Below, in pieces: positions 5,071 through 39,135 of a stretch of 64,000 nt of DNA. The DNA comes from Rhodothermales bacterium (GTDB lineage Bacteria > Bacteroidota > Rhodothermia > Rhodothermales > Bin80). The DNA is taken from contig OZ244061.1 of NCBI GenBank assembly GCA_965215475.1, forward strand, positions 2,728,307 through 2,792,306, written 5' to 3'. The notes under the pieces were generated by a model. The model had not been told where the DNA came from and did not search any database. It was given only the letters and a program-made list of their open reading frames with translations. Position 1 is the first letter of the stretch. Each line of letters starts with the position of its first letter. Made by a program: the position numbers and the translations under genes.

Positions 5071-5072
5071 AA

Positions 5073-13107: not shown

Positions 13108-13596
13108 TTCCCCATTTGCCAAATGAATCTGAGTCTACGCGGGTCCACATAATGTGGCACAACTTATTGCGATTCTCTGTTCATTTCTCAACACTTGTCT
13201 CTTAGATTGGGTGAACCTACGAGAGTGGTTGGAAGGGCGTATTCCAACGTATTGGGCTATTTCGCTGGAAGTAGAACAGTCGGTTGTTTGAAGGCAAGGT
13301 CGGAAAATTGAGAGGATCAGAGAATTTGACAAAGAACCGAATCATTTCGCACAAATTGTGATCGAACTTGGATAAAAAGTGTGAAAGCATCGGCGGTGCA
13401 AGAAGTAATTGAGGTTGCAGAGAGGTTTGAACGTCACTTTGTAGGGGTGCGTGATGCACTTTGACATCTGCAATTCATCCCGACATTGAACCTTGTCAAT
13501 CCATGTGGATCATAGCCTATGGGGTTTTCGGATGAGAACGATCAATCCAGACCTCCAGTAGGGCTCCTTCCATCACTGATTCCAACTCTCCCAACC

Positions 13597-13630
13597 AAAA
13601 GCGCCCCGATACCAAGAGGTACCGGGGCGC
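13597..13630 (-). terminator. Rho-independent terminator of giant gene A
   Basis: On the minus strand: GCGCCCCGGTAC-ctcttg-GTATCGGGGCGC followed by TTTT. A 12-bp stem (one G-U pair) lies about 40 nt after the stop. Confidence 0.8.
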
Positions 13631-13669
13631 CTTGTTTCCCACGTGAGTAGCTACGCTACTCGATCTGCT

Positions 13670-16600
13670 TTACTTCACCAGCGTCATGCGCCCCGTCTTC
13701 ACAAACCTGCTCTCTGCTCCTGTCGCAATCATCCGGTACAGGTAGGTCCCCGAGGCAAGACTCACCGCATTCAGCTCCATGCTCCGGTTCGCCCCCGCCT
13801 CAAACTCCTGCGCCGGCAGCGTCATCACTTCACGACCCAACATGTCCACAATCTGAAGACTCACACGAGCCGACTCCGGTAGATCAAACTGGATCCGCGT
13901 CGAAGGATTGAACGGGTTCGGATAGTTCCCATGCAAGGTGAACTCCGTCGGAAGCTCCTCCGCTTCGGCAACACTGGTCACATTGAAGTGCGCCACACGC
14001 TCCCCATTCACATCCACTCCGTAGACCTCCAAGCTTGCCGCCTGATTGGACAGGTTCAAGATCAAAGCCTCGCCCTGACGCCCCGCCAGATCCAACTGGA
14101 AGACCGCAACCTCCGTGTTGTCCGCCGTGGTGACCTGCAAGTTCACAAAGTCCGGCTCCAACTGCAAATACCGCGTCGTATTGTTGAACGCAAGCTGCCG
14201 CGTCAATACCCGATCCAACTGGTTACTGTTGGATGGATCCAACACATTCACGTTCACCGCCGGCGCATCGCCCGAGCCATGAACCAAGATCGCCTCCACC
14301 ATCGTGCTCGTACTGGATTTCAGGCGGGTTTCAATCGTGTTCACCGCAAGGTTGCCCAACATGCCGTGCGCGATGACCGCATAGCTCTTGTTTGCCCCCA
14401 ACGAAGGCAGGGTCACATCCGTGGTCTGCTCTGCCGGAGCACCCACTAACTGGAGCTGCACCTCATGGGATCCTGCGCTAAGCTTCGTATAGCCCGTCGC
14501 AGTCTGGAACCGCACGTTAGAAAGAAGCGGTGCCCCATCCAGAGATACATTCACCGGTGCAGGTAAGTCTGCGTTATGAATGATCTGAACCTCCGCCAAG
14601 CCACCCGTAATTTCCGCGCGGTGAATGGGGTTCTCAATCCCATTCGCTGCCACGCCCAAAATCGCACATGTGCCAATCTCCACCGTCTCCTGCGTCAAAT
14701 TCAGAACGCCATTCACATATCCGTTTTCCGCAAACGATTCGTCGCCATTTCCGGTGACGGAGGTTCCCGCCAATTTTGCATTCCCCCACTTACAATCCCA
14801 CTGCACCATGCGGATTCCCGCCTGATCAAATACGTTCACCAGTCCGCCCGCTCCAATCCGAACACGAGGATGCACATCCAACTCGTCTTTGAACTCCACT
14901 TTCCAGAAGATGTCCGCATATACATCCAGCGTTAACGCCCCTCCTGAGGTGACGATATTGTCGGCAGGCCAGGATGGTGTTGTCCCGTCGGGAACCGTAA
15001 TCGGCGTCACCGTCGCCGGCATCGCTTCCGATAAATCATCCTCCAGTTGCAGAATCAGCGGACGATAATGCGCCTCCTCTCCACTAGTACCCCCCACCGG
15101 GAACAGGTACCCACCGCTCAATTCCGCCGTCCCCCCAGAAATCCCATCCTTCACATGACGAGAAACCCCCGCCGAGGCATGCGTGCGACGAGTGCCTCCT
15201 GTGATCACTCTGCCACACTTCTCACCCATATCACAGTTGGTCACGGCATTGTTGCGCCCACGGAGATCCTCTTCAATGTTCGGGTTCTTCAACGTCCAGG
15301 TATACTGATCGCTGTGGATGATTCCTCGGGTCAGCGTCAACGTACTCGTTTCCCCTTGCGCGACATTACTCTCCAGCATGATCCCGTTGGCATTGTTGAT
15401 CTCTACCTTCCCCCCGAAGTCTGCCAGGGAACGCACCTTCTGCGCTTCTTTTCCTGAAAACTCCACATCGGCCTGGATCGCGTAATTTTTTGCGGTCGGA
15501 CCAAAGTCAAAGTCTCCCTCCAACTTGAGCTGCGTTCCGGCCTGCGTCGAGAACCGAGCCGCCGCTCCTGGACCAGAGACCTTGAAGCCCTTCTTGGCGG
15601 TCAAGTTCGTATGCGCACTCAAATAGATTGCATCCGTAGGGTCTTGCATATTTGCAGCTCCCGTCGCATTTGTAATGACCTTCGAAAAGTTTCCCTCAAT
15701 GGTCAGCGATCTTTTGGCGTCTGCAGTCCTCCCGGAAGAGAATCCTGCCGTCCCGCTGATCGTGAGATCCTTTTTGAATTCCAATGTATTCAACTCCTGA
15801 TAGAGTCTCGCAGAGGTAACGGCCACATTTTTGTTGATCGTGACCCTGGACCCGCGGAACTCAACCGACCCATTGGATACGTTCAGGGAGTCTACCGCTG
15901 CAGCCCCAGCACCCACCACATACAAGGTCCCGTCCGAGTTTGGTTCTGGTTTTGGTGGCGTTGATTTCTCTGGCGTCTTCATTCCATCAAACACGATGGT
16001 GTCAAATTTCGCGCCGATGATCTCCGTCTGCTTACTTCCTTTCGGCACCCGAATGAGTCCATTGACCGCGCTGCCTTGTTTCACGTCTAATTTCACATGA
16101 GGCCGTGCTACACCTATACTATTGGCCTCACGTCTCATATCTTCGGCCTCAATCGGATACTGAGAATCATCGAACAACCCATCCACCGGATTCGTCGTTT
16201 CGGGGCCTAGCTGGAGAGCACCCTTCTCGCCCACATCAATCGTCCCGACTCCAGCACTCGCTCCACTCTTCCCATTCCCCAAGGTGACGACCGCAGTGGC
16301 GTTGTCCAAACCCTTGCTACTGTTGAGCTGCCCCAATACATGGAGCTCGCCCCCACCCGTCATGATCTTGCCCGTTATCTTGCCCGTTTGCTTGTCTGCC
16401 GTGCCCACATCCACCTTGCCATGCACCACCACGTTATTTCCGTTGGCATGCAGCTCTCCGTTGTCAATCATCAAGGACGGATCATGTGCAATCGAGGGCC
16501 CAATCGTCAGATGAGATCCCTCTCCTTTCAGGTGTAGATGTCCATTAAAGATGTGGACCCCCTCGATCAGAGATTGCTTCTCGTCCACGATCACGACCGC

Positions 16601-19369
16601 ATCCTTATGATCTATCGCCACTTTCCGTACGCCCGTAAACCACTCGCTGTCAATCGTGTGCTCTTTCTCTACTACATACTTTAGAATATAACCGTGACCT
16701 TCGGTACGATTGGCTTCCTTATCCGGAACGTCCGTGCCAATGCTCCCCGGATCATTGGTGTCCAAACTCAGCGTGCCTTCCTTCACCGTAATCTGCTCCG
16801 TCACCATCAGCGTATTCTGCGTATCGGTTCCTGCAGCAAACAGAACCAGAGGGCCCTTGCAGAGTCCCAGGTTCTTGGTCTCGGTCACCTCATCCAGACG
16901 TAACTCTCCGCCATCCAGATAGATGGACAACGATTCAAGTGCCCCCTTCTCCGTGAGGCCTGTGACGATATCCGTGTTCCGGCTGGCATACACCAAGTGC
17001 TTCAGAGTAGACATGGATGACAATTCGCCATCCAATTCGCCATCAAGAAGTAGCGCGTCATTGACGGTGAGCGTTCCTCCATCGGCATCCAGATCGGATC
17101 CGCCACCAACATGAAGCGTCGTAACCGTCAGACTGCCATCTATCTCCAGATCTTCCAATGTGACCAACGTAGCAATCTCCAGACTATACGAACTTGGGAT
17201 CGTATGATCGCCTTCATCGGTCAGGATCAGGCGAGTCCCGGCACGTAGTGAAAGCGTGTTCGTGCACATTCCTTCATCCAGGGCCTCGGCAGCGACTTCC
17301 ATCTCAATCGGATTCCCCGATGCAAAAATGTCTCCGTCCAACTCCAGGTTGTGAACCGAAGTAGCTTTGGTCACAGCCGTCATATCGGCATCCAGAAGAA
17401 TTCTGTGATCATGATCTTCTTCTGCTTCAATATTCAAATCTCCTTCGATACGAGACGTGATCGTGGCGTCTTTGGCGCCCGCCTTCTTCGCCGCAAAAAT
17501 TACACGAGGAGCACAGCTTGTATCCTTGCGGTCCCGCGCGGCGAAATTATTATCACCCTCAGCATCGCGAGCATCTTGCTTAATGACAGAGGCGCGAATA
17601 TCCAAGTCTCCCTCAATCGTCACGGCATCCTGGAACTGCACACCTGGAATATAAAATCCAGGTCCTGCCGTTGCGGTGTTCTGATTCTTGAAGAACCGCA
17701 CATCCGACGGGTCGTCTACCAAGAGGTTCTCCTCCGACGCCGTGACGGTGATCTCGACGGAAGAGGGTGCTCCCTGACGCACCGTATTCGGCAACTTATC
17801 CAACGCCACCGTGAAGGTGCCCGCGGCTACTGTGGGTGATACCGTAAGGTCAACACTACTCGTCGTGCCACTACTAATCGGTATACTCGGACTAGCCGGC
17901 GTCACCGAGCTGACTAGGGTCCCGCTCACGACCAATGGAACCGTCACCGTAGTGTTATCTGGATGCGGTTTGCCGAGGGTCGCGGTCACCGTCACGGTTC
18001 CACCTGCACCCGCCACCAATGGGTTGGGGGTGGTGGTTGCAGTCAAACTCACCACAGGCGTATCCACGATGCGAACTTCGTCCATTGCAGTGCGATAGGT
18101 GCACGAAAACGGAACGTTGTCCGCCTCGCTGGCCAGCTTGACGCCCTGTCGGATCGAAATGACAACATCAGAATCGTCGTCCCGAGCTGTACCAAAACCG
18201 GATAGGCTAGTCGGAAGTGCTCCATCTTCCATAATCACATCTCCCGTAATCGTTGCAGTCTGTTCAAACACCACCCGGGCATCGTTCCACTGCACCACAT
18301 CGCCATCCACCTCGACCTCCTTCCGGAAAATGACGTCCGTTGTGACATCCTGATTTAGGGTGGCAATATCAGCGAGTTCAGCGATACTTCCTGCGACCGT
18401 TATATCGCCAATCTTTGTGAGGTCCACACAGATATTTCCTGCCGCAATCGCACGGATCTCATTCTCGATCTCCCCGCTACCTGAAATCCAGACACAATCC
18501 TCATGATTCGCCACATTTTTACTATCCGGCATGTAGTCACTGCTCGAATGGAAAATGCTTTGGTCGGCATTGTCTCCTGTGCCACCAACGAATTTATCAG
18601 CTCCTAGGTCAGCTCGGTCTGCTTCGGTATTTGCATGAGCAATCCAAACGGTTCCGGGCCCATCAATCGTGCCATTCACGGTTAGGATTCCCTTCCGATC
18701 ACCTGCTCCTGACTTCTTCAGAGGAACACGCAGATCAATCTCCGTTGCAGCGGTTGCGCCGCCTACCGTCAGGGTTGCTCCACTATTCACCGTCAACTCA
18801 TCCACGCGAAGCACCGGATTCGCTCCGGATCCTTCGATCGTCAGATCCTCCGCGACGGTAAGTGCTGGAATCGTAGCACTCACGGTCGTTAATGTCCCCG
18901 TAATCGATAACCTTCCTCCAGGGTGGGTGTCCTTATCAGTGGCCTTCAAAACCGAAATCGTTCCCGCTGTCTCTATAATGGTAACATCCTCGAATTGAAC
19001 CGTGGTTAAGGGGTGGACCACAAATCCTCCCCCACCAATTGTAAATTCGTCCGTGAATTCGATCGTTCCCTTTACCGGGTCTCCACTTCCTCGCACATAG
19101 GTGCCAAATTGTACGGTGGCCTCTAGGGTAGCAGGTGGGTCTAGCGTGACCGTACCACCTACCCTCCGAACCCGAACCAAGAGAGTGTCTCCACTAGCAG
19201 CTGTTATTCCCGCAGCCAATGTGCACGGGGTGCCATTACTACAGTCCGTGTTCGTTGTAATCGGATCTACATACGTATATGTAATCTGCGCAAATGCGCC
19301 GGAGGCGGCAAACAGCATGGCCAACAGTGCCACGCAGCCAACCCCGAAAAGTTTAGTAAAATGTTTCAT
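13670..19369 (-). CDS. Giant secreted protein A (1899 aa), T9SS C-terminal sorting domain
   Basis: Signal peptide MKHFTKLFGVGCVALLAMLFAASGAFAQ. The C-terminus NYPNPFNPSTRIQFDLPESARVSLQIVDMLGREV...GTYLYRM is a type A Por/T9SS CTD. Two DUF4397-like modules precede it (VQIIHNADLPAPVNVSLDG; ILVHGSGDAPAVNVNVLD). The N-terminal half has beta-helix-like repeats. Confidence 0.9.
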   Translation of the reverse strand: MKHFTKLFGVGCVALLAMLFAASGAFAQITYTYVDPITTNTDCSNGTPCTLAAGITAASGDTLLVRVRRVGGTVTLDPPATLEATVQFGTYVRGSGDPVKGTIEFTDEFTIGGGGFVVHPLTTVQFEDVTIIETAGTISVLKATDKDTHPGGRLSITGTLTTVSATIPALTVAEDLTIEGSGANPVLRVDELTVNSGATLTVGGATAATEIDLRVPLKKSGAGDRKGILTVNGTIDGPGTVWIAHANTEADRADLGADKFVGGTGDNADQSIFHSSSDYMPDSKNVANHEDCVWISGSGEIENEIRAIAAGNICVDLTKIGDITVAGSIAELADIATLNQDVTTDVIFRKEVEVDGDVVQWNDARVVFEQTATITGDVIMEDGALPTSLSGFGTARDDDSDVVISIRQGVKLASEADNVPFSCTYRTAMDEVRIVDTPVVSLTATTTPNPLVAGAGGTVTVTATLGKPHPDNTTVTVPLVVSGTLVSSVTPASPSIPISSGTTSSVDLTVSPTVAAGTFTVALDKLPNTVRQGAPSSVEITVTASEENLLVDDPSDVRFFKNQNTATAGPGFYIPGVQFQDAVTIEGDLDIRASVIKQDARDAEGDNNFAARDRKDTSCAPRVIFAAKKAGAKDATITSRIEGDLNIEAEEDHDHRILLDADMTAVTKATSVHNLELDGDIFASGNPIEMEVAAEALDEGMCTNTLSLRAGTRLILTDEGDHTIPSSYSLEIATLVTLEDLEIDGSLTVTTLHVGGGSDLDADGGTLTVNDALLLDGELDGELSSMSTLKHLVYASRNTDIVTGLTEKGALESLSIYLDGGELRLDEVTETKNLGLCKGPLVLFAAGTDTQNTLMVTEQITVKEGTLSLDTNDPGSIGTDVPDKEANRTEGHGYILKYVVEKEHTIDSEWFTGVRKVAIDHKDAVVIVDEKQSLIEGVHIFNGHLHLKGEGSHLTIGPSIAHDPSLMIDNGELHANGNNVVVHGKVDVGTADKQTGKITGKIMTGGGELHVLGQLNSSKGLDNATAVVTLGNGKSGASAGVGTIDVGEKGALQLGPETTNPVDGLFDDSQYPIEAEDMRREANSIGVARPHVKLDVKQGSAVNGLIRVPKGSKQTEIIGAKFDTIVFDGMKTPEKSTPPKPEPNSDGTLYVVGAGAAAVDSLNVSNGSVEFRGSRVTINKNVAVTSARLYQELNTLEFKKDLTISGTAGFSSGRTADAKRSLTIEGNFSKVITNATGAANMQDPTDAIYLSAHTNLTAKKGFKVSGPGAAARFSTQAGTQLKLEGDFDFGPTAKNYAIQADVEFSGKEAQKVRSLADFGGKVEINNANGIMLESNVAQGETSTLTLTRGIIHSDQYTWTLKNPNIEEDLRGRNNAVTNCDMGEKCGRVITGGTRRTHASAGVSRHVKDGISGGTAELSGGYLFPVGGTSGEEAHYRPLILQLEDDLSEAMPATVTPITVPDGTTPSWPADNIVTSGGALTLDVYADIFWKVEFKDELDVHPRVRIGAGGLVNVFDQAGIRMVQWDCKWGNAKLAGTSVTGNGDESFAENGYVNGVLNLTQETVEIGTCAILGVAANGIENPIHRAEITGGLAEVQIIHNADLPAPVNVSLDGAPLLSNVRFQTATGYTKLSAGSHEVQLQLVGAPAEQTTDVTLPSLGANKSYAVIAHGMLGNLAVNTIETRLKSSTSTMVEAILVHGSGDAPAVNVNVLDPSNSNQLDRVLTRQLAFNNTTRYLQLEPDFVNLQVTTADNTEVAVFQLDLAGRQGEALILNLSNQAASLEVYGVDVNGERVAHFNVTSVAEAEELPTEFTLHGNYPNPFNPSTRIQFDLPESARVSLQIVDMLGREVMTLPAQEFEAGANRSMELNAVSLASGTYLYRMIATGAESRFVKTGRMTLVK

Positions 19370-19461
19370 GTGTTTGGGCCTCTGCCCGTTGAGTTATGAA
19401 TTTAGATGCAATCCGGCACTGGGATGACAAGCCATAGTAGATAAACCTAATTCGACATAGG
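19370..19461 (-). promoter_or_regulatory. Conserved 92-bp upstream block (promoter/5' UTR) of giant gene A
   Basis: Identical to the reverse complement of 28055-28146. Homology stops abruptly at 19461/19462. Confidence 0.7.
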
Positions 19462-20036
19462 GAACTCTATTTTATCGGATCAGACCGTCGATCGAATCTC
19501 TCTATTCTCCTTCTGGGGCATGGTGAAGACAGCACCATAGAAGCCCTAGATGCAAGGGAGCGGTGGATGCACCTGAATCATTTTGAATGTTGAATACCGT
19601 AGTTGATTTCCTGATGAAGAGCTCCTTGCATGTGCATGTTTTGTCCACGACCGAATCCCTCGCGCCCATTCTTTGGCAGTAATTAAGATTATGACAATTC
19701 CTTGGGCGAATACGCTAGAGTACTGGGCGGTTGATGTGCTATAAGCAACCAAAACCAGACAAAAACAGCCAATCTACTTCGGTGTGGGTTTCACGAAATC
19801 CATGGAGGGATGCATCGCAGGGGGGAACTGCGGAATGGAACGAAGAACCTTAGGGGATGTGGAACAGGTGAGTATGGAGGAAAAAGCCCTGAAGCGAGGG
19901 TGTGTATGCAACGATCATCTATGATTTCACTGGTAGAACCGTTCTTAACGTAGGGGAAGAACGCACGAAAAAAGGCACCATCGCGCTTTTATAGCACCTT
20001 TTTGTGTACTCAGCGCGTTCTTTCATCTCATTTTAC

Positions 20037-20098
20037 ACATCCCACAGAGGTGGATCCCCTCTTAGTAGTGTTGAAGTTTCAATAATGGAACTTGGCTT
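20037..20098 (+). repeat. ~60-bp block homologous to the pre-ORF region of the group II intron (244-300)
   Basis: ATCCCACAGAGGTGGATCCCCTCTTAGTAGTG...TAATGGAA here matches ATCCCACAGGGGCGGATCCCCTCGTAGTAGTG...TAATGGAA at 244-300. GTGTG at 19792 lies about 250 bp upstream, similar to the arrangement at 13-17. This is a possible remnant of a second intron copy. Confidence 0.4.
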
Positions 20099-20201
20099 CC
20101 CCCTTAAATTGAGGGCATTTAGGGGCAACAGTATTGGATTTAGGAGGGAAGTCAAGTACGTATGATATAAAGACAGATGATTGCATGAATCTGCGGCATT
20201 C

Positions 20202-21965
20202 TCAGACAAAGTCTGATCTCCACAAATGTACAGCTCTCTCAGCAAGTCGCTGCTGTCGTTTATTAACTAGTTCTGGCGTCCATGTCTCAGGCGCAATTTC
20301 AGGGAGCTCCTTGGTAAGTTCGTAGGCACTGTTTTTGTACGCTTCACATTTTTCGTCATACGTTGTATTACTGATTTTTTTATTTGCTGATGACTCAAGA
20401 AGAGTCAGATTGCCGAGACGATACACTGAAGATTCCTGAATTTCGAGTGGAAAAGTTTCTTCCCATGCCTCTACTGGATTTTCGGGAAAAATATGCTCAA
20501 TTGTTCCAGGATCTGTCTCAAAATCACACGAACGCCCTCCAATATTTTGTTCAAGACGTGCTAGAATATATTTCGCCAACTTCCTCCTCAATCCGCGAGG
20601 GGGGATTACTAAGATTGAAAAATCTTGATACATTTTTTCGTCATCTACGTAAACTGGTTTGATTAGCTTGAACACGTCTGCTGGCGATGTTGCCTCTCGA
20701 TCTATAACTGCTCTTGCCGCATTGGGATAGACACGTTCAAGCACATTGGTATTAAGACGGCTGACTACGTTATAGCGAAATGATGTGACGCTTAAGAGTT
20801 TAAGGGTTCGTACAAAATCCTTTTTGGAAAAAACTTCCCAAGTGGCGAATATAAGCGGTAGCATCTGGCGAACTCGAAAAAGGCAAACTTCTCGTATATA
20901 TGGTTTTGCATTGGGTAAGTCCATCCAATAACCATGATTTGGATCCGAGAATGCCGCAAACAGTTCTGCCCTACCTTCCAGTTCATCGAGAAGTACAAAA
21001 ACATCCTCTTGTGACCTGGTTATGTCTCGTATTAGCTTGAAAAGGCGCTTGCTTCGTACCTTGCTCTGTCTACAGAGTAAATGATAGCGTAGAAATTCTG
21101 TAAACCGATCTTGACCTACAGTTGAAATCAATTTTGTCCACCGGCGCTGGAGAGCTTCCAGATCAGCAGGAACTTGTACCAAGGAGAACAGATAGTTCTT
21201 GAGTAAATCCGTTGTTGTAAGCTCAAGACCACGCGCGTTGAGAGTCTCAAATACCGTATACGCATTCAGTTCGTCATCTACTGTTATAAGGATAAACAGC
21301 AGTTGGCGTGCTACGCTTTCAGACAGAATACCAGCCACAATCTCTCCATCCGTTTTCAGATCTTCCGATTCATCAAGTCGTTCTCTAAAGTACAGAAAAC
21401 ATTTCCAGAGTAGGTTGTTCGATTTAGGGAGTCTCCTCGGATTAAGAGGTCTTCTCAACTGGACTAGATAGTCCTGATAGAAGCCGTTATCTGTATGATT
21501 TAATACGAGCCGAGTACTCTCGGTAAGTGATGCGGGGTCTTTTTCTCCAATGAAGCGATTACGCAACTGTTGCGCGCGTTCCTTATTTGAGTCAGGCTCA
21601 ACCCCTTCATTCGCCATCATGTACAATTTACTGATTATGGCAAGTGCAAACAGACTTAATGTGGCTAACCGCTGCTGCCCATCAATGACCAAGAATTCAC
21701 GGTCGCTTTTCCCCTGAATTACCAAAGATCCCATGAAGTGATGATCTTGATCACCAGATGTCAACCCGGCAATATCGTTCCATAGATCTTCCCACTCCTC
21801 TTCTGACCAAGAATAGTCGCGTTGATACGGTGGTACACTGTAGGATCTGCCGTTACCTATCAACTCCATATAGTTAATTGTGCGAGTGTTCAGGATATTT
21901 GTTTTTCCCATCTCAAGAAGCTGTTCGGTTATCTCGGTTTTTTGAATATAGGTTGGACTACACAA
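20202..21965 (-). CDS. DUF262/DUF1524 (GmrSD-like) nuclease, likely type IV restriction/defence
   Basis: Intact 587 aa ORF. N-terminal DUF262 motifs are PPYQRDYSW and VIDGQQRLATL. The C-terminal DUF1524 His-Me finger reads TIEHIFPENP...YRLGNLTLLE. An alternative start exists at 21911 (MGKTNIL). Confidence 0.85.
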   Translation of the reverse strand: MCSPTYIQKTEITEQLLEMGKTNILNTRTINYMELIGNGRSYSVPPYQRDYSWSEEEWEDLWNDIAGLTSGDQDHHFMGSLVIQGKSDREFLVIDGQQRLATLSLFALAIISKLYMMANEGVEPDSNKERAQQLRNRFIGEKDPASLTESTRLVLNHTDNGFYQDYLVQLRRPLNPRRLPKSNNLLWKCFLYFRERLDESEDLKTDGEIVAGILSESVARQLLFILITVDDELNAYTVFETLNARGLELTTTDLLKNYLFSLVQVPADLEALQRRWTKLISTVGQDRFTEFLRYHLLCRQSKVRSKRLFKLIRDITRSQEDVFVLLDELEGRAELFAAFSDPNHGYWMDLPNAKPYIREVCLFRVRQMLPLIFATWEVFSKKDFVRTLKLLSVTSFRYNVVSRLNTNVLERVYPNAARAVIDREATSPADVFKLIKPVYVDDEKMYQDFSILVIPPRGLRRKLAKYILARLEQNIGGRSCDFETDPGTIEHIFPENPVEAWEETFPLEIQESSVYRLGNLTLLESSANKKISNTTYDEKCEAYKNSAYELTKELPEIAPETWTPELVNKRQQRLAERAVHLWRSDFV

Positions 21966-22344
21966 ATCACTCCTTTACGAAATCTTATGCAAAAACAGCC
22001 CTAAATTGCTCCAAAAAATTCTCGGAGAATTTGCCCCTTAAAAGGTAGCAACGTCAATCTGAACCATGTGACAACTTCGGTTTGAGTGTACAAGCCTCGC
22101 GAAAAATATACCAAATTTCTGATTGGAATACATGCCTCAATTCATTTCGCGCGAACACTCCACCGATAAAACATCCTCTTCAAGCAGAAAACGATCTTGT
22201 AACCGCGTCCTTCCACATGCAGAAATCGTTCAAACCCCTTCTGGAAAGGAGATGATGTGGTGTTCAGTTTTTCAAAAATCCCAACCCATTACCTCTGTAT
22301 AAGAGGTAATCACCGAAGTTAGGGCCATAGCCCACGAGTCCGAA

Positions 22345-22880: not shown

Positions 22881-22976
22881 ACCACCGAACAAAATTCACA
22901 AATGAGCATTTTCTGGATAGACACTCTGTAATAGATTCAGTCCGTCACAAAACATATATCGCAAAGTCCAAACACC

Positions 22977-25234: not shown

Positions 25235-27119
25235 TGACTGATACATCTTTCACAGAAGACGACACACGAGACAATACTGCGGATGAGACAATTAAAACCT
25301 GCTTATCACTGAAAAAACCGCATAGTTTTTTCCTCTATGCCGGAGCTGGTTCTGGAAAGACACGTTCACTGAAAGACGCGTTGCATTTTGTTTTGGAGAA
25401 ATATGGTGACGCTTTACGCCGTCAGGGTCGAAAGGTCGCTGTGATCACGTATACAAACGCTGCCTGCGATGAAATTCTCCGCCGTGTCAAACATGATCCT
25501 GTCTTTGATGTCGCTACAATTCATAGTTTCGCTTGGACACTACTTGAGGGGCGAACCCAAGATATTAGTCAGTGGCTGGCTAAGAGACTGCCAAAAGATA
25601 TCGAAAAAAATGTTGGCAAGCTTGGCCACGCGCGAATCAAAAAACACCAAGATATTCACCAGCACAAAATCGCTTCGCTCAAGGAGCGATTAAAGGGACT
25701 GGAAAGCATTATCCAGTTCACCTACAATCCGAACGGGGATAATTTTGGCAAGGATTCTCTCTCTCACAGTGAAGTCATTGACATATCTTCTGATTTCCTC
25801 ATCCATAAGCCGACGCTTCAGAAAATTGTGCTTAGCCGCTATCCCTTTTTGCTGATTGATGAGAGCCAAGACACGCTCAAACAGTTTATGGAGGCCATTC
25901 TAGAATTTGAAAAAGTACATAAAGGTCAGATCGTAATAGGTCTCTTTGGGGATACAATGCAACGTATCTATGGCCATGGCAAGAGCGACCTTATGGAATC
26001 TATCCCTGAGTACTGGAAAAAGCCTAAAAAATGCATGAATCATCGAAGCCGAGAACGTATCATCAGGTTAGCAAATGCGATTCGTAAGGACGCTGATGGC
26101 TGGTCACAGCGGGATCGAGCCAACAAATCAGGTGGCCACGTAGCTGCTTATATCGTTCCAGTTACCACCGCAGATAAGTCCGCTTTGGAAGGCCGAATTT
26201 GTAAAGACCTTGCTGAACGTACAAGCGATCCAGACTGGACTGACATGAAGGTCGTGAAAATGATAACCGTTGAACATCATATGGCAGCTGAAAGACTCGG
26301 GTTTAAGACTCTGTTTTCCGCGATTGATCCGGTTTCTACACTGAGGACAGGATTTCGTGATGGCTCTCTTGCAGCACTTCGTTTTTTCACTGAGCTAGTA
26401 TTGCCGCTCGTAAATGCACATCAAGAAGGAAGTCACTATGCCGTTATGTCTATTTTACGTAGCCAGTCGCCACTGCTTTCAAGAACACAACTACAATTGA
26501 AGAAAGATACAATCAAAACATCCATGGAGATCGTTCGAAGGGCTGTCTCAGTTCTCACGACACATTTTGAGAATAGTAATGATCCCCGATGTATCGATAT
26601 TCTCTCTATAGTAAAAACCTACAGGCTTTTCACTATCCCTGAGGATCTTCTTACGGCATTAGATTTGCGAAATAATGCATCCACGGAGGGTAGTTTTGAT
26701 GAAAAGATGATAAGATTGCTGCCTGGCAGAAATTGCTCGATGTTCAATTTTCGGAAATTTCACTATACAAAGACTATGTGAACGATCGTAGCCGATTTGG
26801 CACGCATCAAGGTGTGAAGGGTTTAGAGTATCCACGAGTCATGGTAATCACTGACGATTCCAGCATGCGCTTCAAAGGTTCGGTAGCTTATGATAAACTC
26901 TTTGGTGCGAAGCCTCCAAGTAAAACCGATATGGATAATGAAAGAGATGGAAGAGAGACCATGAATGATCGTACCCGGCGTTTGCTCTATGTTACTTGTA
27001 CACGGGCCAAAGAAAGCTTGGCATTGGTAATCTATAGTAACAATCCAAACCCGATAAAAGAGACTTTATTGGACAAGCAATGGTTCAAGGAGGACGAGAT
27101 TAATACATCAATCCATTAA
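25231..27119 (+). pseudogene. UvrD/PcrA/Rep-like helicase (GajB-like), one frameshift
   Basis: Walker A is YAGAGSGKT, motif II is FLLIDESQDT, and the C-terminus reads THQGVKGLEYPRVMVI...RRLLYVTCTRAKESL. The frame switches at about 26697-26710 next to GAAAAG. The start overlaps the OLD stop (ATGA). Confidence 0.8.
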
Positions 27120-28054
27120 CTGGGTTGAATAATCTAACGGATTTATATATGTGTACACCCATAGAAAACTGCAACATCTTCTTGAGTTCAGGTGAATTCT
27201 TCTCTCCGGGAGGAGGCAGATGTGCTTGTTATGCTGGTGCTATCAACGCCGGTAAATTGGCTACCATTCATGGCTGTACATTGCCGAAAACATCAACTTG
27301 CGCTGAGGAGAATCTTTTATGTTTGAGCAGGAGTTTGCAAGAGCCTCCCTATCTACGTCATCTGGAACAACGACCATGTAGTCGCGATGCAAAACCTGAA
27401 GACAACAAGTATTTGCTACGGCTTGTCGGAGCTGAGGAACAAGATTAGTCTGACGACATCTGGGATACACAATGCCTTGGACGAGAATCTTGAGCGTATA
27501 CTGAAGCGAGAGATATCAGAGGAAGTCCTTGAAGGGCTATTCAATGGCCAAGGGCATAAATTCAGGATGAAGAAAAAGCAGGCAAAGAAAAATCCGTTCA
27601 TTCTGCGTTCAATCATTGAGAACGCAAATGCCCAAGGACGACAAAGTCACACGCTCAAGCTACATCTTAAACAGGATCGTCCAAATCCGTCCCACATATG
27701 AAGAGTGAAGTCGGAAATTCAAACAATAGATTCACCAAGGTACGTTTTAAGTTTGAAGATCAAGTACCTCATATCGTGTGCGTTTCAATCGGATCAAACT
27801 GATCAAGTCACTGTTGAACGAAATCAAGTTACAGGATCCTACTTCACACAAGCCACTAGGATTTCGGAGGTAATGCTCCAATACGATATATATTATCGTC
27901 ACAACGAGGCAATATTGCAATAGCGATCTCCTATTGTTTCCTCCTGATATTGGAGAAATCTTCCAACCTTTTGAAAAAATACTTGTTAAAGTCTTGAATG
28001 GAATTACGCGTAGTCGTTAGTTATTGTGTAATTCCCGAAAGAGGTGCTGGGATA

Positions 28055-28146
28055 CCTATGTCGAATTAGGTTTATCTACTATGGCTTGTCATCCCAGTGC
28101 CGGATTGCATCTAAATTCATAACTCAACGGGCAGAGGCCCAAACAC
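28055..28146 (+). promoter_or_regulatory. Conserved 92-bp upstream block (promoter/5' UTR) of giant gene B
   Basis: Identical to the reverse complement of 19370-19461. It contains TAGGTTTA (28067-28074), a near match to the Bacteroidota -7 box TAnnTTTG. The promoter assignment is weak. Confidence 0.6.
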
Positions 28147-31100
28147 ATGAAACATTTTACTAAACTTTTCGGGGTTGGCTGCGTGGCACTGTTGGCCATG
28201 CTGTTTGCCGCCTCCGGCGCATTTGCGCAGACAACAAGATATGTGGATGTAAATAATGGAAGCGGTGCGGATTGTACCCTTACGGCACCGTGTCTGTTAG
28301 ACAACGCCATAGGCTCTGAAGGCACCGTCTTGATCCGGGTTCGCCGGGCAGGGAGCACCGTTACGCTTGCTCCCCCTGCGTCTTCCCTAACAGCGAATAT
28401 AACGTTTGGGGCTTATGTGCGGGGCAGTGGAAGCGCGGTCAAGGGGACGTTGGAATTTGAAGACGAATTTACAATTGGTGCTGGGACATTTACAATCCAC
28501 AAAGATGCGACGGTTCAATTTGAGGATGTGAAATTGTCTGATGATGCAACAAGGACTTCTGGAGCAATAGCGTTTGCTGATTCTCCTGCTGACGACAAAA
28601 ATCATCCAGCAAGCAGGCTGTCGATTACGGGGACCTTGACGGTCGTGGGGTCGTCAAACTACCTCGACGCACTCGAGGTGGCGAACGATCTAACGATTGA
28701 GGGTGAGAGCACGAGTCCAAGATTGAGAGTGAATCAGCTAACGGTCAAGCGTGGTGCCACGCTGACGGTAGGCGGCTCCACTGCTGCCGCGGAGATTGAT
28801 CTACACGTTGCTCTGAAAAAATCAGCAAAGGATAGTAAGAATGGAATCCTGACGGTAGATGGCACAATTGACGGGCCGGGAACGGTTTGGTTTACCCCGG
28901 AAGCTCGAACTTCAAGCTTCTTTCATCTGAGTAGTGATTATCAACCCGATGCCAGGAATGTGATAGATCATGATGATTGTGTTCTGGTGACCGGAGGCGG
29001 GGAGATCGAAAATGAGATCCGCGCGATCGCGGCAGGGAATATCTGTATCAATCTGACAAAGATTGGGGATTTGACGGTGGCAGGAAGTATTGCAGCTGAC
29101 GCCACCGATAATCCGGACGTCACGACGGATGTCATTTTCCGGAACGAGGTCGAGATTGATGGGGATGTGGTGCAGTGGAACGATGCCCGGGTGGTGTTTG
29201 AGAAGGATGCCACGGTCACGGGGGATGTGATTTTGGCAGATGGAGTGTTGCCGACCGGCGTATTTCCAAGCAGTTTTCCAGTCGATCAGAGTACAGCTCG
29301 GGTGGATGATGGAGGTGTTGCGACTTCAATCCGCAGGGGCGTCAAGCTGGCCAGCGCGGCGGAAAACGATCCGTTTACGTGTGAGTACCTCAATGACATG
29401 GCAGCGGTGCGCATCGTGGATACGCCTGTGGTGAGTTTGAGCGCCACTCCCACCTCACAGGTTGTGGGTGGAACCGTGACGGTGACCGCGACCCTCAATA
29501 AAGCGCATCCAGATGGCACTGATGTAACGGTTCCATTGGTCGTGAACCCAGCCAACGCGGTGACGCCGGCTAATCCGAGTATAACGATTGCTGGTGTCGC
29601 CACGACGGGTAGTGTTCCCCTTACGGTATCAAACACACCGGGCACCTTCACGGTGGCGTTGGGTGAGGTGATGAATGCGCGTCCAGGCACCACCGCCACG
29701 TCCGTCTCGATCACCGTCACGCCGACGGGGAAGAACCTCTTGGTAGACGACCCGTCGGATGCGCGGTTCTTCAAGAATCAGGACACCGCAACGGCAGGAC
29801 CGGGATTTTATATTCCGGGAGTCCTCTTCCAGGGCGAGGTGACGATTGAGGGGGATCTGGATATTCGCTCCGATGACATTGCTGGAATAGATTCCGCGCC
29901 GAACCGCAAGGATACAAGCTGTGCTCCTCGTGTGATTTTCGCGGCAGAGAAGGTAGGCAAGGCGAACTCGGCCATCATGTCGCGGATTGAAGGAGATTTG
30001 AACATTGAAGCCACGCACAATGACCGCATCCTTCTGGATGCCCATATGGATGGCGCAATTATTTCGGCGCACAACTTGGCATTGGACGGAGAGATTTTTG
30101 CGGAGGAGGGGGCACCGATTGAAATGGAAAATCCCGCGGAGACGCTGGATGAGGGGGAGTGCAAGAATACGCTTGCGTTAAATGGCGGGACACGCCTGAT
30201 TTTGACCGAGGAAGGAAACGGCCGGGAGATTTCGGGGGATCTGATGATTCATGCGTTGGTCACCTTGGAAGACCTAGAGATTACGGGAGATGTGACGGTT
30301 ACGACGCTTCATGTGGGGAGCGGATCTGACCTTGAGGTGGATGAAACGCTCACCGTCAAAGACGCGCTGATCCTTGAGGGCGAATTGGATGGTGCATTGC
30401 ATTCCAACTCCGAGTTGAAGCACTTGGTGTATGCCAGCCGGAACACGGATATCGTCACAGGCCTCACGGAGAAGGGGGCACTTGAATCGTTGTCCATCTA
30501 TCTGGATGGCGGAGAGTTACGTCTGGATGAGGTGACCGAGACCAAGAACCTGGGACTCTGCAAGGGCCCTCTGGTTCTGTTTGCTGCAGGAACCGATACG
30601 CAGAATACGCTGATGGTGACGGAGCAGATTACGGTGAAGGAGGGTACGCTGAGTTTGGACACCAATGATCCGGGGAGCATTGGCACGGACGTTCCGGATA
30701 AGGAAGCCGATCGTACCGGAAATCACGGTTATATTCTAAAGTATGTAGTAGAGAAAGAGCACACGATTGACAGCGAGTGGTTTACGGGCGTACGGAAAGT
30801 GGCGATAGATCATAAGGATGCGGTCGTGATCGTGGACGAGAAGCAATCTCTGATCGAGGGGGTCCACATCTTTAATGGACATCTACACCTGAAAGGAGAG
30901 GGATCTCATCTGACGATTGGGCCCTCGAGTAAACATGCTCCGTTCTTGATGATTGACAACGGAGAGCTACATGCCAACGGAAATAACGTGGTGGTGCATG
31001 GCAAGGTGGATGTGGGCAAGGCAGACAAGCAAACGGGCAAGATCATGACGGGTGGGGGCGAGCTCCATGTGCTGGGGCAGCTCAACAGTAGCAAGGGTTT

Positions 31101-33750
31101 GGACAACGCCACTGCGGTCGTCACCTTGGGGAATGGGAAGAGTGGAGCGACTGCTGGAGTCGGGACGATTGATGTGGGCGAGGGTGCTCTCCAGCTAGGC
31201 CCCGAAACGACGAATCCGTTGGATGAGTTGGGCAATGATTGGCAGTATCCGATTCCGAACGCGAATGCACGGCGGCCTCATGTGAAATTAGACGTGAAAC
31301 AAGGCAGCGCGGTCAATGGACTCATTCGGGTGCCGAAAGGAAGTAAGCAGACGGAGATCATCGGCGCGAAATTTGACACCATCGTGTTTGATGGAATGAA
31401 GACGCCAAATAAACCAGGGACGGTGGATCCCAGCAAATTAAACTGGGACGGGACCTTGTATGTGATGGGTATCGGAGCCGCGGGGAAAGAAGCGATCACA
31501 GTGGATTCCCTGAACGCATCGAATGGGGCGGTTGAGTTCTGGGGGTCCAAGGCCACGATCACCAAAAATGTGGACGTTACCTCTGCGAACCTCTTCCAGC
31601 AGTTGAATACGTTGGAATTCAAAAAGGATCTCACGATCAGCGGGACGGCAGGATTCTCTTCCAGAGAGGGGGATGCAGACGCCAAAAAATCGCTGACCAT
31701 TGAGGGAAACTTTTCGAAGGTCATTACAAGTGCGACGGGAGCTGCTAATGAGGATCAAGAGAGAGGGATTTCGAATACTCCTACGGATGCAATCTATTTG
31801 AGTGAGTATACGAACTTGACCGCCAAGAAGGACTTCAAGGTCTCTGGTCCAGGAGCGGCCACTCGGTTCTTGACGCAGAACGGAACGCAGCTTAAGTTGG
31901 AGGGAGACTTTGACTTTGGTCCGACCGCAGAAGGTTATGCGATCGAGGCCGATGTGGAGTTTTCAGGAAAAGAAGCGCAGAAGGTGCGTTCCCTGGCAGA
32001 CTTCGGGGGGAAGGTAGAGATCAACAATGCCAACGGGATCATGCTGGAGAGTAATGTCGCGCAAGGGGAAACGAGTACGTTGACGCTGACCCGAGGAATC
32101 ATCCACAGCGATCAGTATACCTGGACGTTGAAGAACCCGAACATTGAAGAGGATCTCCGTGGGCGCAACAATGCCGTGACCAACTGTGATACGGATGAGA
32201 ATTGTGACAAAGTGATCACAGGAGGCACGCGTCGCACGCATGCCTCGGCGGGGGTTTCTCGTCATGTGAAGGATGGGATTTCTGGGGGGACGGCGGAATT
32301 GAGCGGTGGGTACCTGTTCCCGGTGGGGGGTACTAGTGGAGAGGAGGCGCATTATCGTCCGCTGATTCTGCAACTGGAGGATGATTTATCGGAAGCGATG
32401 CCGGCGACGGTGACGCCGATTACGGTTCCCGACGGGGCAACACCATCCTGGCCTGCCGACAATATCGTCACCTCAGGAGGGGCGTTAACGCTGGATGTAT
32501 ATGCGGACATCTTCTGGAAAGTGGAGTTCAAAGACGAGTTGGATGTGCATCCTCGTGTTCGGATTGGAGCGGGCGGACTGGTGAACGTATTTGATCAGGC
32601 GGGAATCCGCATGGTGCAGTGGGATTGTGAATGGGATAATCCGAAATTGGCGGGAACCTCCGTCACCGGAAATGGCGACGAATCGTTTGCGGAAAACGGA
32701 TATGTGAATGGCGTTCTGAATTTGACGCAGGAGACGGTGGAGATTGGCACATGTGCGATTTTGGGCGTGGCAGCGAATGGGATTGAGAACCCCATTCACC
32801 GCGCGGAAATTACGGGGGGCTTGGCGGAGGTTCAGATCATTCATAACGCAAACTTACCTGCACCGGTGAATGTATCTCTGGATGGGGCGCCGCTTCTTTC
32901 TGGCGTGCGGTTCCAGACTGCGACGGGCTATACGAAGCTTAGCGCAGGATCCCATGAGGTGCAGCTCCAGTTAGTGGGTGCTCCGGCAGAGCAGACCACG
33001 GATGTGACCCTGCCTTCGTTGGGGGCAAACAAGAGCTATGCGGTCATCGCGCACGGCATGTTGGGCAACCTTGCGGTGAACACGATTGAAACCCGCCTGA
33101 AATCCAGTACGAGCACGATGGTGGAGGCGATCTTGGTTCATGGCTCGGGCGATGCGCCGGCGGTGAACGTGAATGTGTTGGATCCATCCAACAGTAACCA
33201 GTTGGATCGGGTATTGACGCGGCAGCTTGCGTTCAACAATACGACGCGGTATTTGCAGTTGGAGCCGGACTTTGTGAACTTGCAGGTCACCACGGCGGAC
33301 AACACGGAGGTTGCGGTCTTCCAGTTGGATCTGGCGGGGCGTCAGGGCGAGGCTTTGATCTTGAACCTGTCCAATCAGGCGGCAAGCTTGGAGGTCTACG
33401 GAGTGGATGTGAATGGGGAGCGTGTGGCGCACTTCAATGTGACGAGTGTTGCCGAAGCGGAGGAGCTTCCGACGGAGTTCACCTTGCATGGGAACTATCC
33501 GAACCCGTTCAATCCTTCGACGCGGATCCAGTTTGATCTACCGGAGTCGGCTCGTGTGAGTCTTCAGATTGTGGACATGTTGGGTCGTGAAGTGATGACG
33601 CTGCCGGCGCAGGAGTTTGAGGCGGGGGCGAACCGGAGCATGGAGCTGAATGCGGTGAGTCTTGCCTCGGGGACCTACCTGTACCGGATGATTGCGACAG
33701 GAGCGGAGAGCAGGTTTGTGAAGTCGGGTCGTATGACGCTGGTGAAGTAA
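28147..33750 (+). CDS. Giant secreted protein B (1867 aa), T9SS C-terminal sorting domain, paralog of A
   Basis: Same signal peptide and T9SS CTD as A. Residues 29 to about 755 are only ~60-70% identical to A. From LKHLVYASRNTD onward the two are near-identical, except for a variable patch at about 31165-31960. Confidence 0.9.
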   Translation: MKHFTKLFGVGCVALLAMLFAASGAFAQTTRYVDVNNGSGADCTLTAPCLLDNAIGSEGTVLIRVRRAGSTVTLAPPASSLTANITFGAYVRGSGSAVKGTLEFEDEFTIGAGTFTIHKDATVQFEDVKLSDDATRTSGAIAFADSPADDKNHPASRLSITGTLTVVGSSNYLDALEVANDLTIEGESTSPRLRVNQLTVKRGATLTVGGSTAAAEIDLHVALKKSAKDSKNGILTVDGTIDGPGTVWFTPEARTSSFFHLSSDYQPDARNVIDHDDCVLVTGGGEIENEIRAIAAGNICINLTKIGDLTVAGSIAADATDNPDVTTDVIFRNEVEIDGDVVQWNDARVVFEKDATVTGDVILADGVLPTGVFPSSFPVDQSTARVDDGGVATSIRRGVKLASAAENDPFTCEYLNDMAAVRIVDTPVVSLSATPTSQVVGGTVTVTATLNKAHPDGTDVTVPLVVNPANAVTPANPSITIAGVATTGSVPLTVSNTPGTFTVALGEVMNARPGTTATSVSITVTPTGKNLLVDDPSDARFFKNQDTATAGPGFYIPGVLFQGEVTIEGDLDIRSDDIAGIDSAPNRKDTSCAPRVIFAAEKVGKANSAIMSRIEGDLNIEATHNDRILLDAHMDGAIISAHNLALDGEIFAEEGAPIEMENPAETLDEGECKNTLALNGGTRLILTEEGNGREISGDLMIHALVTLEDLEITGDVTVTTLHVGSGSDLEVDETLTVKDALILEGELDGALHSNSELKHLVYASRNTDIVTGLTEKGALESLSIYLDGGELRLDEVTETKNLGLCKGPLVLFAAGTDTQNTLMVTEQITVKEGTLSLDTNDPGSIGTDVPDKEADRTGNHGYILKYVVEKEHTIDSEWFTGVRKVAIDHKDAVVIVDEKQSLIEGVHIFNGHLHLKGEGSHLTIGPSSKHAPFLMIDNGELHANGNNVVVHGKVDVGKADKQTGKIMTGGGELHVLGQLNSSKGLDNATAVVTLGNGKSGATAGVGTIDVGEGALQLGPETTNPLDELGNDWQYPIPNANARRPHVKLDVKQGSAVNGLIRVPKGSKQTEIIGAKFDTIVFDGMKTPNKPGTVDPSKLNWDGTLYVMGIGAAGKEAITVDSLNASNGAVEFWGSKATITKNVDVTSANLFQQLNTLEFKKDLTISGTAGFSSREGDADAKKSLTIEGNFSKVITSATGAANEDQERGISNTPTDAIYLSEYTNLTAKKDFKVSGPGAATRFLTQNGTQLKLEGDFDFGPTAEGYAIEADVEFSGKEAQKVRSLADFGGKVEINNANGIMLESNVAQGETSTLTLTRGIIHSDQYTWTLKNPNIEEDLRGRNNAVTNCDTDENCDKVITGGTRRTHASAGVSRHVKDGISGGTAELSGGYLFPVGGTSGEEAHYRPLILQLEDDLSEAMPATVTPITVPDGATPSWPADNIVTSGGALTLDVYADIFWKVEFKDELDVHPRVRIGAGGLVNVFDQAGIRMVQWDCEWDNPKLAGTSVTGNGDESFAENGYVNGVLNLTQETVEIGTCAILGVAANGIENPIHRAEITGGLAEVQIIHNANLPAPVNVSLDGAPLLSGVRFQTATGYTKLSAGSHEVQLQLVGAPAEQTTDVTLPSLGANKSYAVIAHGMLGNLAVNTIETRLKSSTSTMVEAILVHGSGDAPAVNVNVLDPSNSNQLDRVLTRQLAFNNTTRYLQLEPDFVNLQVTTADNTEVAVFQLDLAGRQGEALILNLSNQAASLEVYGVDVNGERVAHFNVTSVAEAEELPTEFTLHGNYPNPFNPSTRIQFDLPESARVSLQIVDMLGREVMTLPAQEFEAGANRSMELNAVSLASGTYLYRMIATGAESRFVKSGRMTLVK

Positions 33751-33789
33751 AGCAGATCGAGTAGCGTAGCTACTCACGCAGGAAACAAG

Positions 33790-33823
33790 GCGCCCCGGTA
33801 CTTCTTGGTATCGGGGCGCTTTT
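33790..33823 (+). terminator. Rho-independent terminator of giant gene B
   Basis: GCGCCCCGGTAC-ttcttg-GTATCGGGGCGC followed by TTTT. It is a homologue of the terminator at 13597-13630, with one difference in the loop. Confidence 0.8.
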
Positions 33824-33898
33824 GCGTTGGGAAAAAAGTTCGGGAGGGAGGTAACCCCATTATATTTTCACATGATCACATAAAAAACGAAGTAAAAA

Positions 33899-38700: not shown

Positions 38701-38719
38701 TTGTCCCAGATTCAAAAGG

Positions 38720-39080: not shown

Positions 39081-39135
39081 AAACGCAAGTTTGCAATTTA
39101 TAGTGGATTTTTTCATGAGTTTCGGTGGTTCCCAT

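Follow-up and report, generated by a model that had tools for sequence, protein, structure and literature searches.

We analyzed a 64,000-nt stretch of DNA from a Rhodothermales bacterium (GCA_965215475.1, contig OZ244061.1, positions 2,728,307-2,792,306 of the forward strand), hereafter the window. Two giant genes for surface proteins, gene A and gene B, lie head to head in it, with their start codons back to back (Table 1). Each occupies one arm of a large inverted repeat, and the DNA between the arms, termed the core, carries genes related to defence systems. Loci of relatives that were compared with the window bear L-numbers (L001, L002 and so on). Two of them, L094 and L096, represent a sister genome, an independent assembly at 564x coverage whose flanks are 98.3% identical to those of the window.

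Two giant surface-protein genes in an inverted repeat

A repeat search returned 19 colinear inverted pairs, which place the arms at 13596-19461 and 28055-33824. The ~5.8-kb inverted repeat of two divergent type IX secretion system (T9SS) genes that the original prediction described from this DNA is thus present. Its inner ends are sharp, and homology stops at 19461/19462 and 28054/28055, 92 bp 5' of each ATG, as that prediction also held. The outer ends lie 74 nt beyond the stop codons, just past a strong hairpin terminator. The arms have a G+C content of ~55%, and the core and flanks ~43%.

Both proteins carry a C-terminal sorting domain (PF18962 at 32.5 and 32.4 bits, cut-off 27 bits; TIGR04183 at 32.6 bits, cut-off 23 bits) and DUF4397 above the curated Pfam cut-off. 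An N-terminal signal peptide ending in AFAQ is readable. Sorting domain and signal peptide together mark them as T9SS type A cargo. A sequence search of the PDB with gene B gave no match, nor did exact-sequence look-ups of gene A, gene B and the recombinase of the window.

A short stem-loop lies 6-10 nt 5' of the ATG in the window (28125-28140 and 19376-19391) and in the leaders of most family members. Its sequence is GGGC-AGAG-GCCC in the clade of the window and GGAG-N4-5-CTCC in other members, variants that look like two compensatory changes. RNAalifold predicted no structure for the leader; it missed this stem-loop because the halves align out of register.

Gene conversion between the arms

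Base-by-base alignment of the arms revealed a mosaic. The arms are identical over 177 nt that begin 92 nt before the ATG and end with the final codon of the signal peptide. Identity is ~60-80% over the N-terminal half, 96-100% at 16377-17075, and 98-100% across the last 2 kb, with perfect tracts of up to 540 nt. Within a single gene, synonymous divergence (dS) between gene A and gene B varies between 0.00 and 1.28, a range beyond what selection on the protein can produce.

The sister genome documents such an exchange directly. Its A locus retains the A-type 3' flank and the same left core end, and the N-terminal half of its gene is 87-100% identical to window gene B versus 60-82% to gene A. 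From the spacer of the 5' site onward, the two sister arms do not differ for ~4.9 kb, except by one 15-nt indel. These data show that the sister A locus was overwritten by B-type sequence, a non-reciprocal gene conversion between inverted arms. Mosaic synonymous divergence combined with non-reciprocal replacement is the pattern of RecA-type concerted evolution, and a tandem pair in L001 shows the same 3'-biased homogenisation. We are confident that these paralogues evolve in concert by gene conversion.

A 289-aa open reading frame (ORF) without family matches (38290-39159, +) includes a segment of ~100 nt (38729-38830) that resembles the giant genes, with 82% identity to them (at 31154-31254) and 91% to the copy in the sister genome. 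The segment is perhaps a remnant, or else a fragment that serves as conversion donor.

A palindromic site at the inner repeat ends

Each inner repeat end coincides with a 16-bp palindrome of consensus CCTA(A/T)-N6-TTAGG. Across 1.67 Mb, comprising the window and the loci, 13 of the 14 exact matches to CCTA[AT]N6TTAGG fall in giant-gene leaders. A search of the window allowing one mismatch returned the two sites plus palindromes at 37526 and 42378. The latter two lack extended arms and fit the chance expectation of 1.3, and we rejected them as sites.

The arms of the palindrome reach ~11 nt, and two spacer classes can be told apart: (A/G)TCGA(A/G) at site 1 and TT(G/A)CAG at site 2. Both window copies belong to site 1. 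In relatives, core-side extensions of the GAGTTC type, as at site 1 (A), stand beside the recombinase gene, and those of the GGGATA type, as at site 1 (B), beside a conserved upstream block (see below). In L007 and L067 as well, the inner end of a 6-7.5-kb inverted repeat is the edge of a site. Inverted pairs of sites are present in the window, the sister genome, L007, L067, L089 and L090. A divergent pair formed by L012 and giant gene 1 of L002 (contig OZ241385.1) has site 1 in common, with spacer ATCGAA, despite gene bodies that are merely ~73% identical.

A tyrosine recombinase linked to the giant genes

The window encodes an Xer-like tyrosine recombinase. A protein search from it yielded ten clusters that group tightly at 66-78% identity; beyond them, identity falls below 50%. 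Six of the ten clusters were looked up, leading to eight contigs (L086-L093), and a giant DUF4397/T9SS gene lies beside the recombinase gene in all eight. In seven (L086-L088, L090-L092 and L093), the giant gene is divergent from the recombinase gene and 50-160 bp away. In the eighth, L089, the divergent position at the contig end holds only an unassigned 167-aa fragment, and a full giant gene follows 2.1 kb downstream on the same strand. The spacer between recombinase gene and giant gene contains an exact palindromic site in L088, L089 and L090-L092, and a degenerate one, recognized by eye, in L086 and L087. No site was found in the L093 spacer.

Homologues of the window recombinase at 66-78% identity also adjoin giant genes in L002, L007, L067 and L069. 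In L007, L067, L089 and L090, the recombinase gene is the sole gene in a core of 2486-2499 bp between head-to-head giant genes. It is site-adjacent in L086 and L002, and in the window it lies beyond the far side of gene A. The sister-genome protein, likewise 342 aa, falls in the 90%-identity cluster of the window recombinase. Judged by this linkage, the recombinase appears to be dedicated to giant-gene leaders in the relatives.

Some non-coding sequence accompanies the recombinase gene. An element of ~320 nt downstream of it (window 11759-12077) is 67-73% identical to sequences in L003, L009, L010, L040 (two copies), L054, L066 and L072, and has no Rfam match and no conserved ORF. The 2.4-kb cores share a stretch of ~200 nt that is ~90% conserved (L067 7816-8030, L007 8355-8550, L089 2209-2422, L090 7349-7541); it lacks an Rfam match and is probably non-coding. 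A small ORF called in these cores was rejected as coding, since in some genomes neither frame is free of stop codons. The last ~45 nt of a giant gene and its terminator region recur just 3' of the recombinase gene inside the 2.4-kb cores (window 13593-13715 versus L007 8704-8831 and L067 7617-7664). This recurrence suggests an origin of these cores from a tandem array, as in L002, in which the recombinase gene stood between two giant genes.

The core is flipped between relatives

To either side of site 2, the leaders of L007 (genes A and B) and L067 (genes g1 and g2) pair differently. Over 60 nt on the core side, L007 A matches L067 g2 (98%) and L007 B matches L067 g1 (82%). Over 90 nt on the gene side, L007 A matches L067 g1 (91%) and L007 B matches L067 g2 (83%). 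The two loci are colinear in their gene bodies and right flank. Because within-genome homogenisation makes gene-body identities uninformative here, the crossover was resolved at the site itself. The comparison shows a reciprocal exchange, confined to the 16-bp site, by which the 2.4-kb core has been flipped. Sixteen base pairs are too short for homologous recombination. Leader signatures place the recombinase gene beside the same giant gene in L067, L088, L089 and L090, and beside the other one in L007 alone.

The segment between the genes had been predicted to be potentially invertible, and in relatives it is indeed found in both orientations. The proposal that the arms act as recombination partners stands for gene conversion, as the ~4.9 kb of identity in the sister genome attests. 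It does not stand for a flip by RecA-mediated crossover in the C-terminal halves, since the flip in relatives maps to the 16-bp site. That a site-specific inversion system exists in this clade is, we think, likely.

A conserved upstream block and a possible switch

In four genomes, no other 100 bp of the 2.49-kb core are as well conserved (95%, versus 88-94% for the recombinase gene) as those next to site 1, which align with a block directly upstream of the site at gene B (Table 1) and with the region upstream of giant gene 1 of L002. This block contains the palindrome TACGCGTA and a TTACGC-17-TGTAAT pair that could be a promoter. The block as a whole is probably a promoter or regulatory region. 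It is missing at gene A, where homology stops at the site. No further copy was found in the window, whereas a history of one-step inversion would predict a leftover copy. A terminator scan of the core returned fewer matches than shuffled sequence and is uninformative. Further upstream of the block lie frame-shifted gene remnants (window 27125-27947, L002 8841-9800) that are conserved between genomes. A TOPRIM-like FFADTVVLVEGD motif persists in the L002 remnant, and the peptides IYVIW.NDH and DAKPED.KYLLRL..AEEQD occur in both.

By position, gene A is the counterpart of giant gene 1 of L002 and of the A' gene of the sister genome. Gene A and the L002 gene are both convergent with the recombinase gene, and their N-terminal similarity is the closer one (65-72% versus 58-62%). 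The upstream region of the L002 gene now stands beside gene B, not gene A. This configuration fits, weakly, a past flip in one of the two lineages.

These data can be combined as follows. The 16-bp sites, inverted relative to each other, mark the start of each leader, and the recombinase would invert the segment between them. In the window the upstream block faces gene B only; a flip of the 8.6-kb core would couple it to gene A, and the result would be a two-state expression switch like that of vpma or sap. Passenger genes would have swelled the inter-site segment from ~2.4 kb to 8.6 kb, with the recombinase gene now outside it. Homologous recombination between the arms, in the form of multi-kilobase conversion, keeps the leader, signal peptide and C-terminal half near-identical, and can also copy one variable N-terminal half over the other.

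We favor, by a modest degree, the view that the locus is a head-to-head pair of cassettes subject to conversion between arms and to site-specific recombination at the inner repeat ends. The chance that the window core can still flip appears evenly balanced, and we hold it possible, though rather doubtful, that a flip switches expression.

Several points weigh against this view. Core orientation is the same in the window and the sister genome, with no inversion between them, and three assemblies of one relative (L090-L092) lack orientation polymorphism. The window recombinase gene lies 8 kb from the nearer site, and its counterparts abut a site in nearly every relative examined. The N-terminal similarity behind the comparison with L002 is weak. 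The palindromes could be operator sites, and the 92-nt leader could hold a promoter of its own, making a flip silent. A sigma-70 promoter scan of the core is uninformative, with fewer matches than in shuffled sequence. Finally, the two genes of the sister strain have the same variable half, so a switch there would be antigenically neutral.

Paralogues, integration or inversion

The strongest competing explanation is that the giant genes are passive paralogues. They would undergo RecA-dependent conversion, with inversion as a neutral by-product, the palindromes as regulator sites and the recombinase as part of a mobile element. Gene conversion is directly shown, tandem pairs such as L001 are homogenised with the same 3' bias, no orientation polymorphism was found within the species, and conjugation genes are often nearby, all as this explanation expects. 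Yet the exchange between L007 and L067 maps to a stretch too short for homologous recombination, and the recombinase gene and its sites occupy the 2.4-kb cores of L007, L067, L089 and L090 without other mobile-element genes. The L012/L002 pair, moreover, shares site and spacer despite its diverged gene bodies. We consider passive paralogy possible but improbable.

The sites might instead be the attachment sites of an integrative (conjugative) element, with the core as the integrated element and a recombinase that integrates into giant-gene leaders. The recombinase is of the integrase type, type IV secretion/conjugation genes lie near the locus in the window, L001, L002, L086 and L087, and the break in homology falls exactly on the site, as at attL and attR. 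But in the window, the sister genome, L007, L067, L089 and L090 the sites are inverted rather than direct, an arrangement that leads to inversion and not excision, and the 2.4-kb cores have no transfer or replication genes. We judge this explanation very unlikely.

Table 1. Coordinates of features at the giant-gene locus, in window positions
Feature	Position	Strand	Remarks
Xer-like tyrosine recombinase	10398..11426	+	342 aa, apparently intact; R..K..HxxR..W..Y residues readable
Repeat arm A	13596..19461	-	Complete cassette: recombination site (candidate), leader, gene A, terminator
Shared 3' flank with hairpin terminator	13596..13669	-	GCGCCCCG..CGGGGCGC then T run; partner copy 33751-33824
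Gene A	13670..19369	-	1899 aa giant T9SS-sorted surface protein, DUF4397 + Por_Secre_tail
Site 1 (A), candidate recombination site	19446..19461	-	CCTAT GTCGAA TTAGG; -92..-77 of gene A; core-side extension GAGTTC
Inter-site core	19462..28054	.	8,593 bp; candidate invertible segment
Left core end, non-coding	19462..19886	.	88-93% conserved beside A locus of sister genome
GmrSD-type (type IV restriction-like) gene	20202..21965	-	Intact; Pfam; PADLOC HEC-06/Orf5
Insertion sequence (IS) fragment, IS1380/IS4-like	22510..22854	+	345 nt; 96-99% identical to 53792-54139 (longer IS copy)
Gabija GajA pseudogene	23061..25234	+	OLD-family ATPase + TOPRIM; PADLOC, Pfam
Gabija GajB (UvrD-like helicase), split	25231..27119	+	Frameshift near 26733-26781
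Ancestral upstream region of gene B, not cargo	27348..28054	+	~700 bp, 75% identical to L002 9209-9917; includes decayed gene remnants
Conserved upstream block	27957..28054	+	-190..-93 of gene B; also at L002 giant gene 1, L007 A, L067 g2
Repeat arm B	28055..33824	+	Recombination site (candidate), leader, gene B, terminator
Site 1 (B), candidate recombination site	28055..28070	+	Identical sequence, inverted relative to site 1 (A); core-side extension GGGATA
Perfect shared tract, 177 nt	28055..28231	+	Equals 19285-19461; site, 5' leader, signal peptide; ends at cleavage motif AFAQ
Gene B	28147..33750	+	1867 aa giant T9SS-sorted surface protein, DUF4397 + T9SS sorting domain

Defence genes in the core

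The original prediction described an 8,593-bp unique core with GmrSD-like, OLD-like and UvrD-like genes. Its size is correct, but it is not wholly unique, as 22510-22854 copies part of an IS; its end, 27348-28054, is ancestral sequence and not cargo. The genes are all there, but only GmrSD is intact, and the OLD-like and UvrD-like genes are a broken GajA and a broken GajB. GmrSD combines PF03235 (GmrSD_N, DUF262; 129.8 bits) and PF07510 (GmrSD_C, DUF1524, HNH-like; 87.1 bits) in one intact protein, with a full-length PADLOC match to HEC-06 at 692 bits. Homology of the Gabija genes is strong by PADLOC (E down to 5e-111 for pieces of GajA, 1e-166 for GajB). GajA is broken into at least three pieces, spread over two reading frames; it has an internal stop and a frameshift and is missing the first ~29 residues. 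GajB is split as well. Neither gene being intact, the Gabija pair of the core is a decayed system.

Cargo varies from locus to locus. The sister genome keeps GmrSD between its arms but lacks Gabija except for a 294-nt GajB fragment, and its core holds extra IS copies and an AAA_13 gene. The cores of four relatives (L007, L067, L089 and L090) contain no defence genes. The divergent pair on OZ241385.1 encloses 16 kb of defence-type genes: ThsB-TIR with 8xMP, AAA_14/DUF4143 ATPases, a transposase and a STAND ATPase. That cargo differs between strains and relatives indicates that the intergenic space of divergent pairs tolerates insertions. The GmrSD gene alone is ~80% identical to unrelated metagenome contigs; a metagenome scan with it gave such relatives in unrelated contexts only, and no alternative arrangement of the locus. 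With Gabija decayed, GmrSD alone in unrelated contigs and different cargo in the sister strain, the defence genes look like incidental, separately acquired and partly decayed passengers. We found no evidence that the arms serve the cargo, and the idea of a defence-carrying module is not supported.

In its full form, that idea was of a composite, RecA-invertible module whose arms carry or switch defence cargo, with the arms as the ends of a composite element. Defence-type genes do fill the interval on OZ241385.1, the sister genome does keep GmrSD between its arms, and the ~4.9 kb over which its inverted arms are nearly identical make a strong substrate for RecA. Composite transposons and defence islands likewise have kilobase inverted repeats around accessory and defence genes. 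Here, however, the arms encode giant genes only, with no transposase; the outer flanks have no shared direct repeat and hence no target-site duplication; there is no sign of movement as a unit; and tandem and convergent pairs occur too. Both Gabija genes are pseudogenes, IS activity alters the cargo between sister strains, and four relatives have the same architecture with the recombinase alone in the core. Inversion, in addition, would leave expression of GmrSD and Gabija unchanged. Such a module is highly improbable.

A mis-assembly of a single giant gene as an inverted duplicate, an error to which long near-identical repeats are prone, is barely credible, given that the arms diverge by 20-40% over 2.5 kb, that their flanks are distinct, and that the independent sister assembly and several relatives show the same architecture.

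The giant-gene family and its surroundings

A family scan with one genome per species found 528 relatives of the giant genes, nearly all in Rhodothermales metagenome-assembled genomes, with dozens of paralogues per genome. OZ241874.1 alone contributed ~40 of the 72 loci kept. Bin names suggest an origin in sponge microbiomes. Among neighboring pairs, those of L001 and L002 are tandem, that of L012 is convergent, and those of L007, L067, L089 and L090 are divergent; the left flank of L001 is syntenic with the window. With pairs in every orientation, the inverted arrangement is just one possible outcome among several rather than a set design. The comparison with relatives, which the original prediction called for, turned up this head-to-head architecture again around other cargo.

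In OZ241874.1, 28 paralogues have a poly-G tract of 8-14 nt (mode 10) at signal-peptide codons ~8-11 (positions ~9930-10040 of loci L010-L063). Of these genes, 13 keep their frame; the other 15 are shifted out of frame, with reading frames of ~1700 aa that are otherwise intact. The tracts look like slipped-strand contingency loci, and their lengths could include homopolymer consensus errors. The window clade has just G4-G5 at this position. No recombinase homologue was found near the poly-G copies of OZ241874.1. In L067, gene g2, which lies beside the upstream block, has a 1-nt deletion (GGGG to GGG, ~9015, codon ~52) that breaks the frame; its partner is intact. This break could reflect a real pseudogene, phase variation or a consensus error.

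Outside the giant genes, the window encodes two inverted STAND/AAA_16 ATPase paralogues with 58% aa identity (1923-3152, -; 35596-36816, +). Homologues, often several per locus, adjoin giant genes in many relatives. Type IV secretion/conjugation genes (VirB8, TrbL, VirB4/TraG-like, TrbC) flank the locus at 4408-9849 of the window and in L001, L002, L086, L087 and L094. Because these syntenic genes vary in orientation relative to the giant genes, the giant genes appear to sit at rearrangement breakpoints. Mobile elements are abundant (window 42491-43738 and 53775-54671; L094 103-1237; L096 641-2672 and 6004-6945) and include Mutator-family, IS1380/IS4-like, DDE_Tnp_1 and ISAZ013 transposases and group II intron reverse transcriptase genes. 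Their content differs between the window and the sister genome.

Discussion

The architecture had been presented as undescribed, yet the same logic operates in the Campylobacter fetus sap locus and the Mycoplasma vpma and vsa loci. In Mycoplasma agalactiae, the vpma genes share a single promoter, which site-specific inversion moves from gene to gene; each gene has its recombination site at -1..-72, and the Xer-like recombinase is encoded next to them (PMC2268961). Like vpma/Xer1, M. bovis vsp/Mbr and M. pulmonis vsa/HvsR, the giant genes form a surface-protein multigene family whose conserved 5' leader holds the site, although this begins at -92 or -75 in Rhodothermales rather than lying at -1..-72 as in vpma. 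Shared with vpma, too, is an Xer-like tyrosine recombinase encoded beside the genes. The proteins of vpma are small lipoproteins, whereas the T9SS cargo genes here measure 5.6-7.5 kb and form two-gene head-to-head units. In contrast to vpma, the recombinase gene lies inside the invertible segment in Rhodothermales relatives (and outside it in the window), extensive gene conversion is added, and promoter and switching are only inferred.

For C. fetus, Dworkin and Blaser (1996-97) reportedly described sap promoter inversion and its recA dependence. Opposed S-layer homologues with a conserved 5' region flank an invertible segment there, much as the giant genes flank the core. That segment carries a single promoter together with the unrelated genes sapCDEF, and recombination among homologues makes variants (locus composition and recombination: PMC4943207, PMC3887049). 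Unlike the 16-bp palindrome found beside a recombinase gene in the relatives, sap uses ~600-bp conserved 5' regions and is RecA-dependent, and its cargo is a secretion apparatus rather than defence and IS debris.

In Bacteroides, tyrosine recombinases (Mpi, Tsr family) flip DNA between short inverted repeats, varying surface structures. Invertible promoters and outer-membrane-protein shufflons of Bacteroides are mentioned in PMC2268961. The lineage is related (Bacteroidota, where Rhodothermales were formerly placed), but those segments are usually promoters of 200-300 bp with ON/OFF states, as opposed to 2.4-8.6 kb between two alternative genes. Inverting type I hsdS loci (pneumococcal ivr, Mycoplasma hsd) also have inverted paralogues around a tyrosine recombinase gene. 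Their inversions reshuffle variable halves through sites inside the coding sequence and produce chimeric genes, with a promoter at one copy only; the site mapped here lies upstream of the start codon. The Rhodothermales locus departs from known systems in phylum, in the size of its genes and their T9SS cargo, in its two-gene toggle and in the strong gene conversion superimposed on it; the window, in addition, has a larger core that does not include the recombinase gene.

How pathogens and gut Bacteroides vary their surface proteins in a programmed way has been studied in detail. We know of no description of such variation for Rhodothermales T9SS cargo proteins or for symbionts of marine invertebrates. 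Only tentatively do we raise the full picture, which is possible but less likely than not: an undescribed surface-variation system for giant T9SS adhesin-like proteins of apparently sponge-associated Rhodothermales. In one clade, a dedicated Xer-like recombinase would flip a promoter-bearing segment between two head-to-head genes at CCTAA-N6-TTAGG, conversion would reshuffle the variable halves, a sister clade would switch by poly-G tracts, and the segment would be a protected landing pad on which defence genes accumulate. If true, this would be a compact system, comprising a 16-bp site, one recombinase and two alternative 5.7-kb genes, and it would explain the position of the giant genes at synteny breakpoints. 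The locus also illustrates that kilobase inverted repeats around defence genes need not mean a defence device. Here the repeats are due to concerted evolution of surface-protein paralogues, while the defence genes between them turn over between sister strains.

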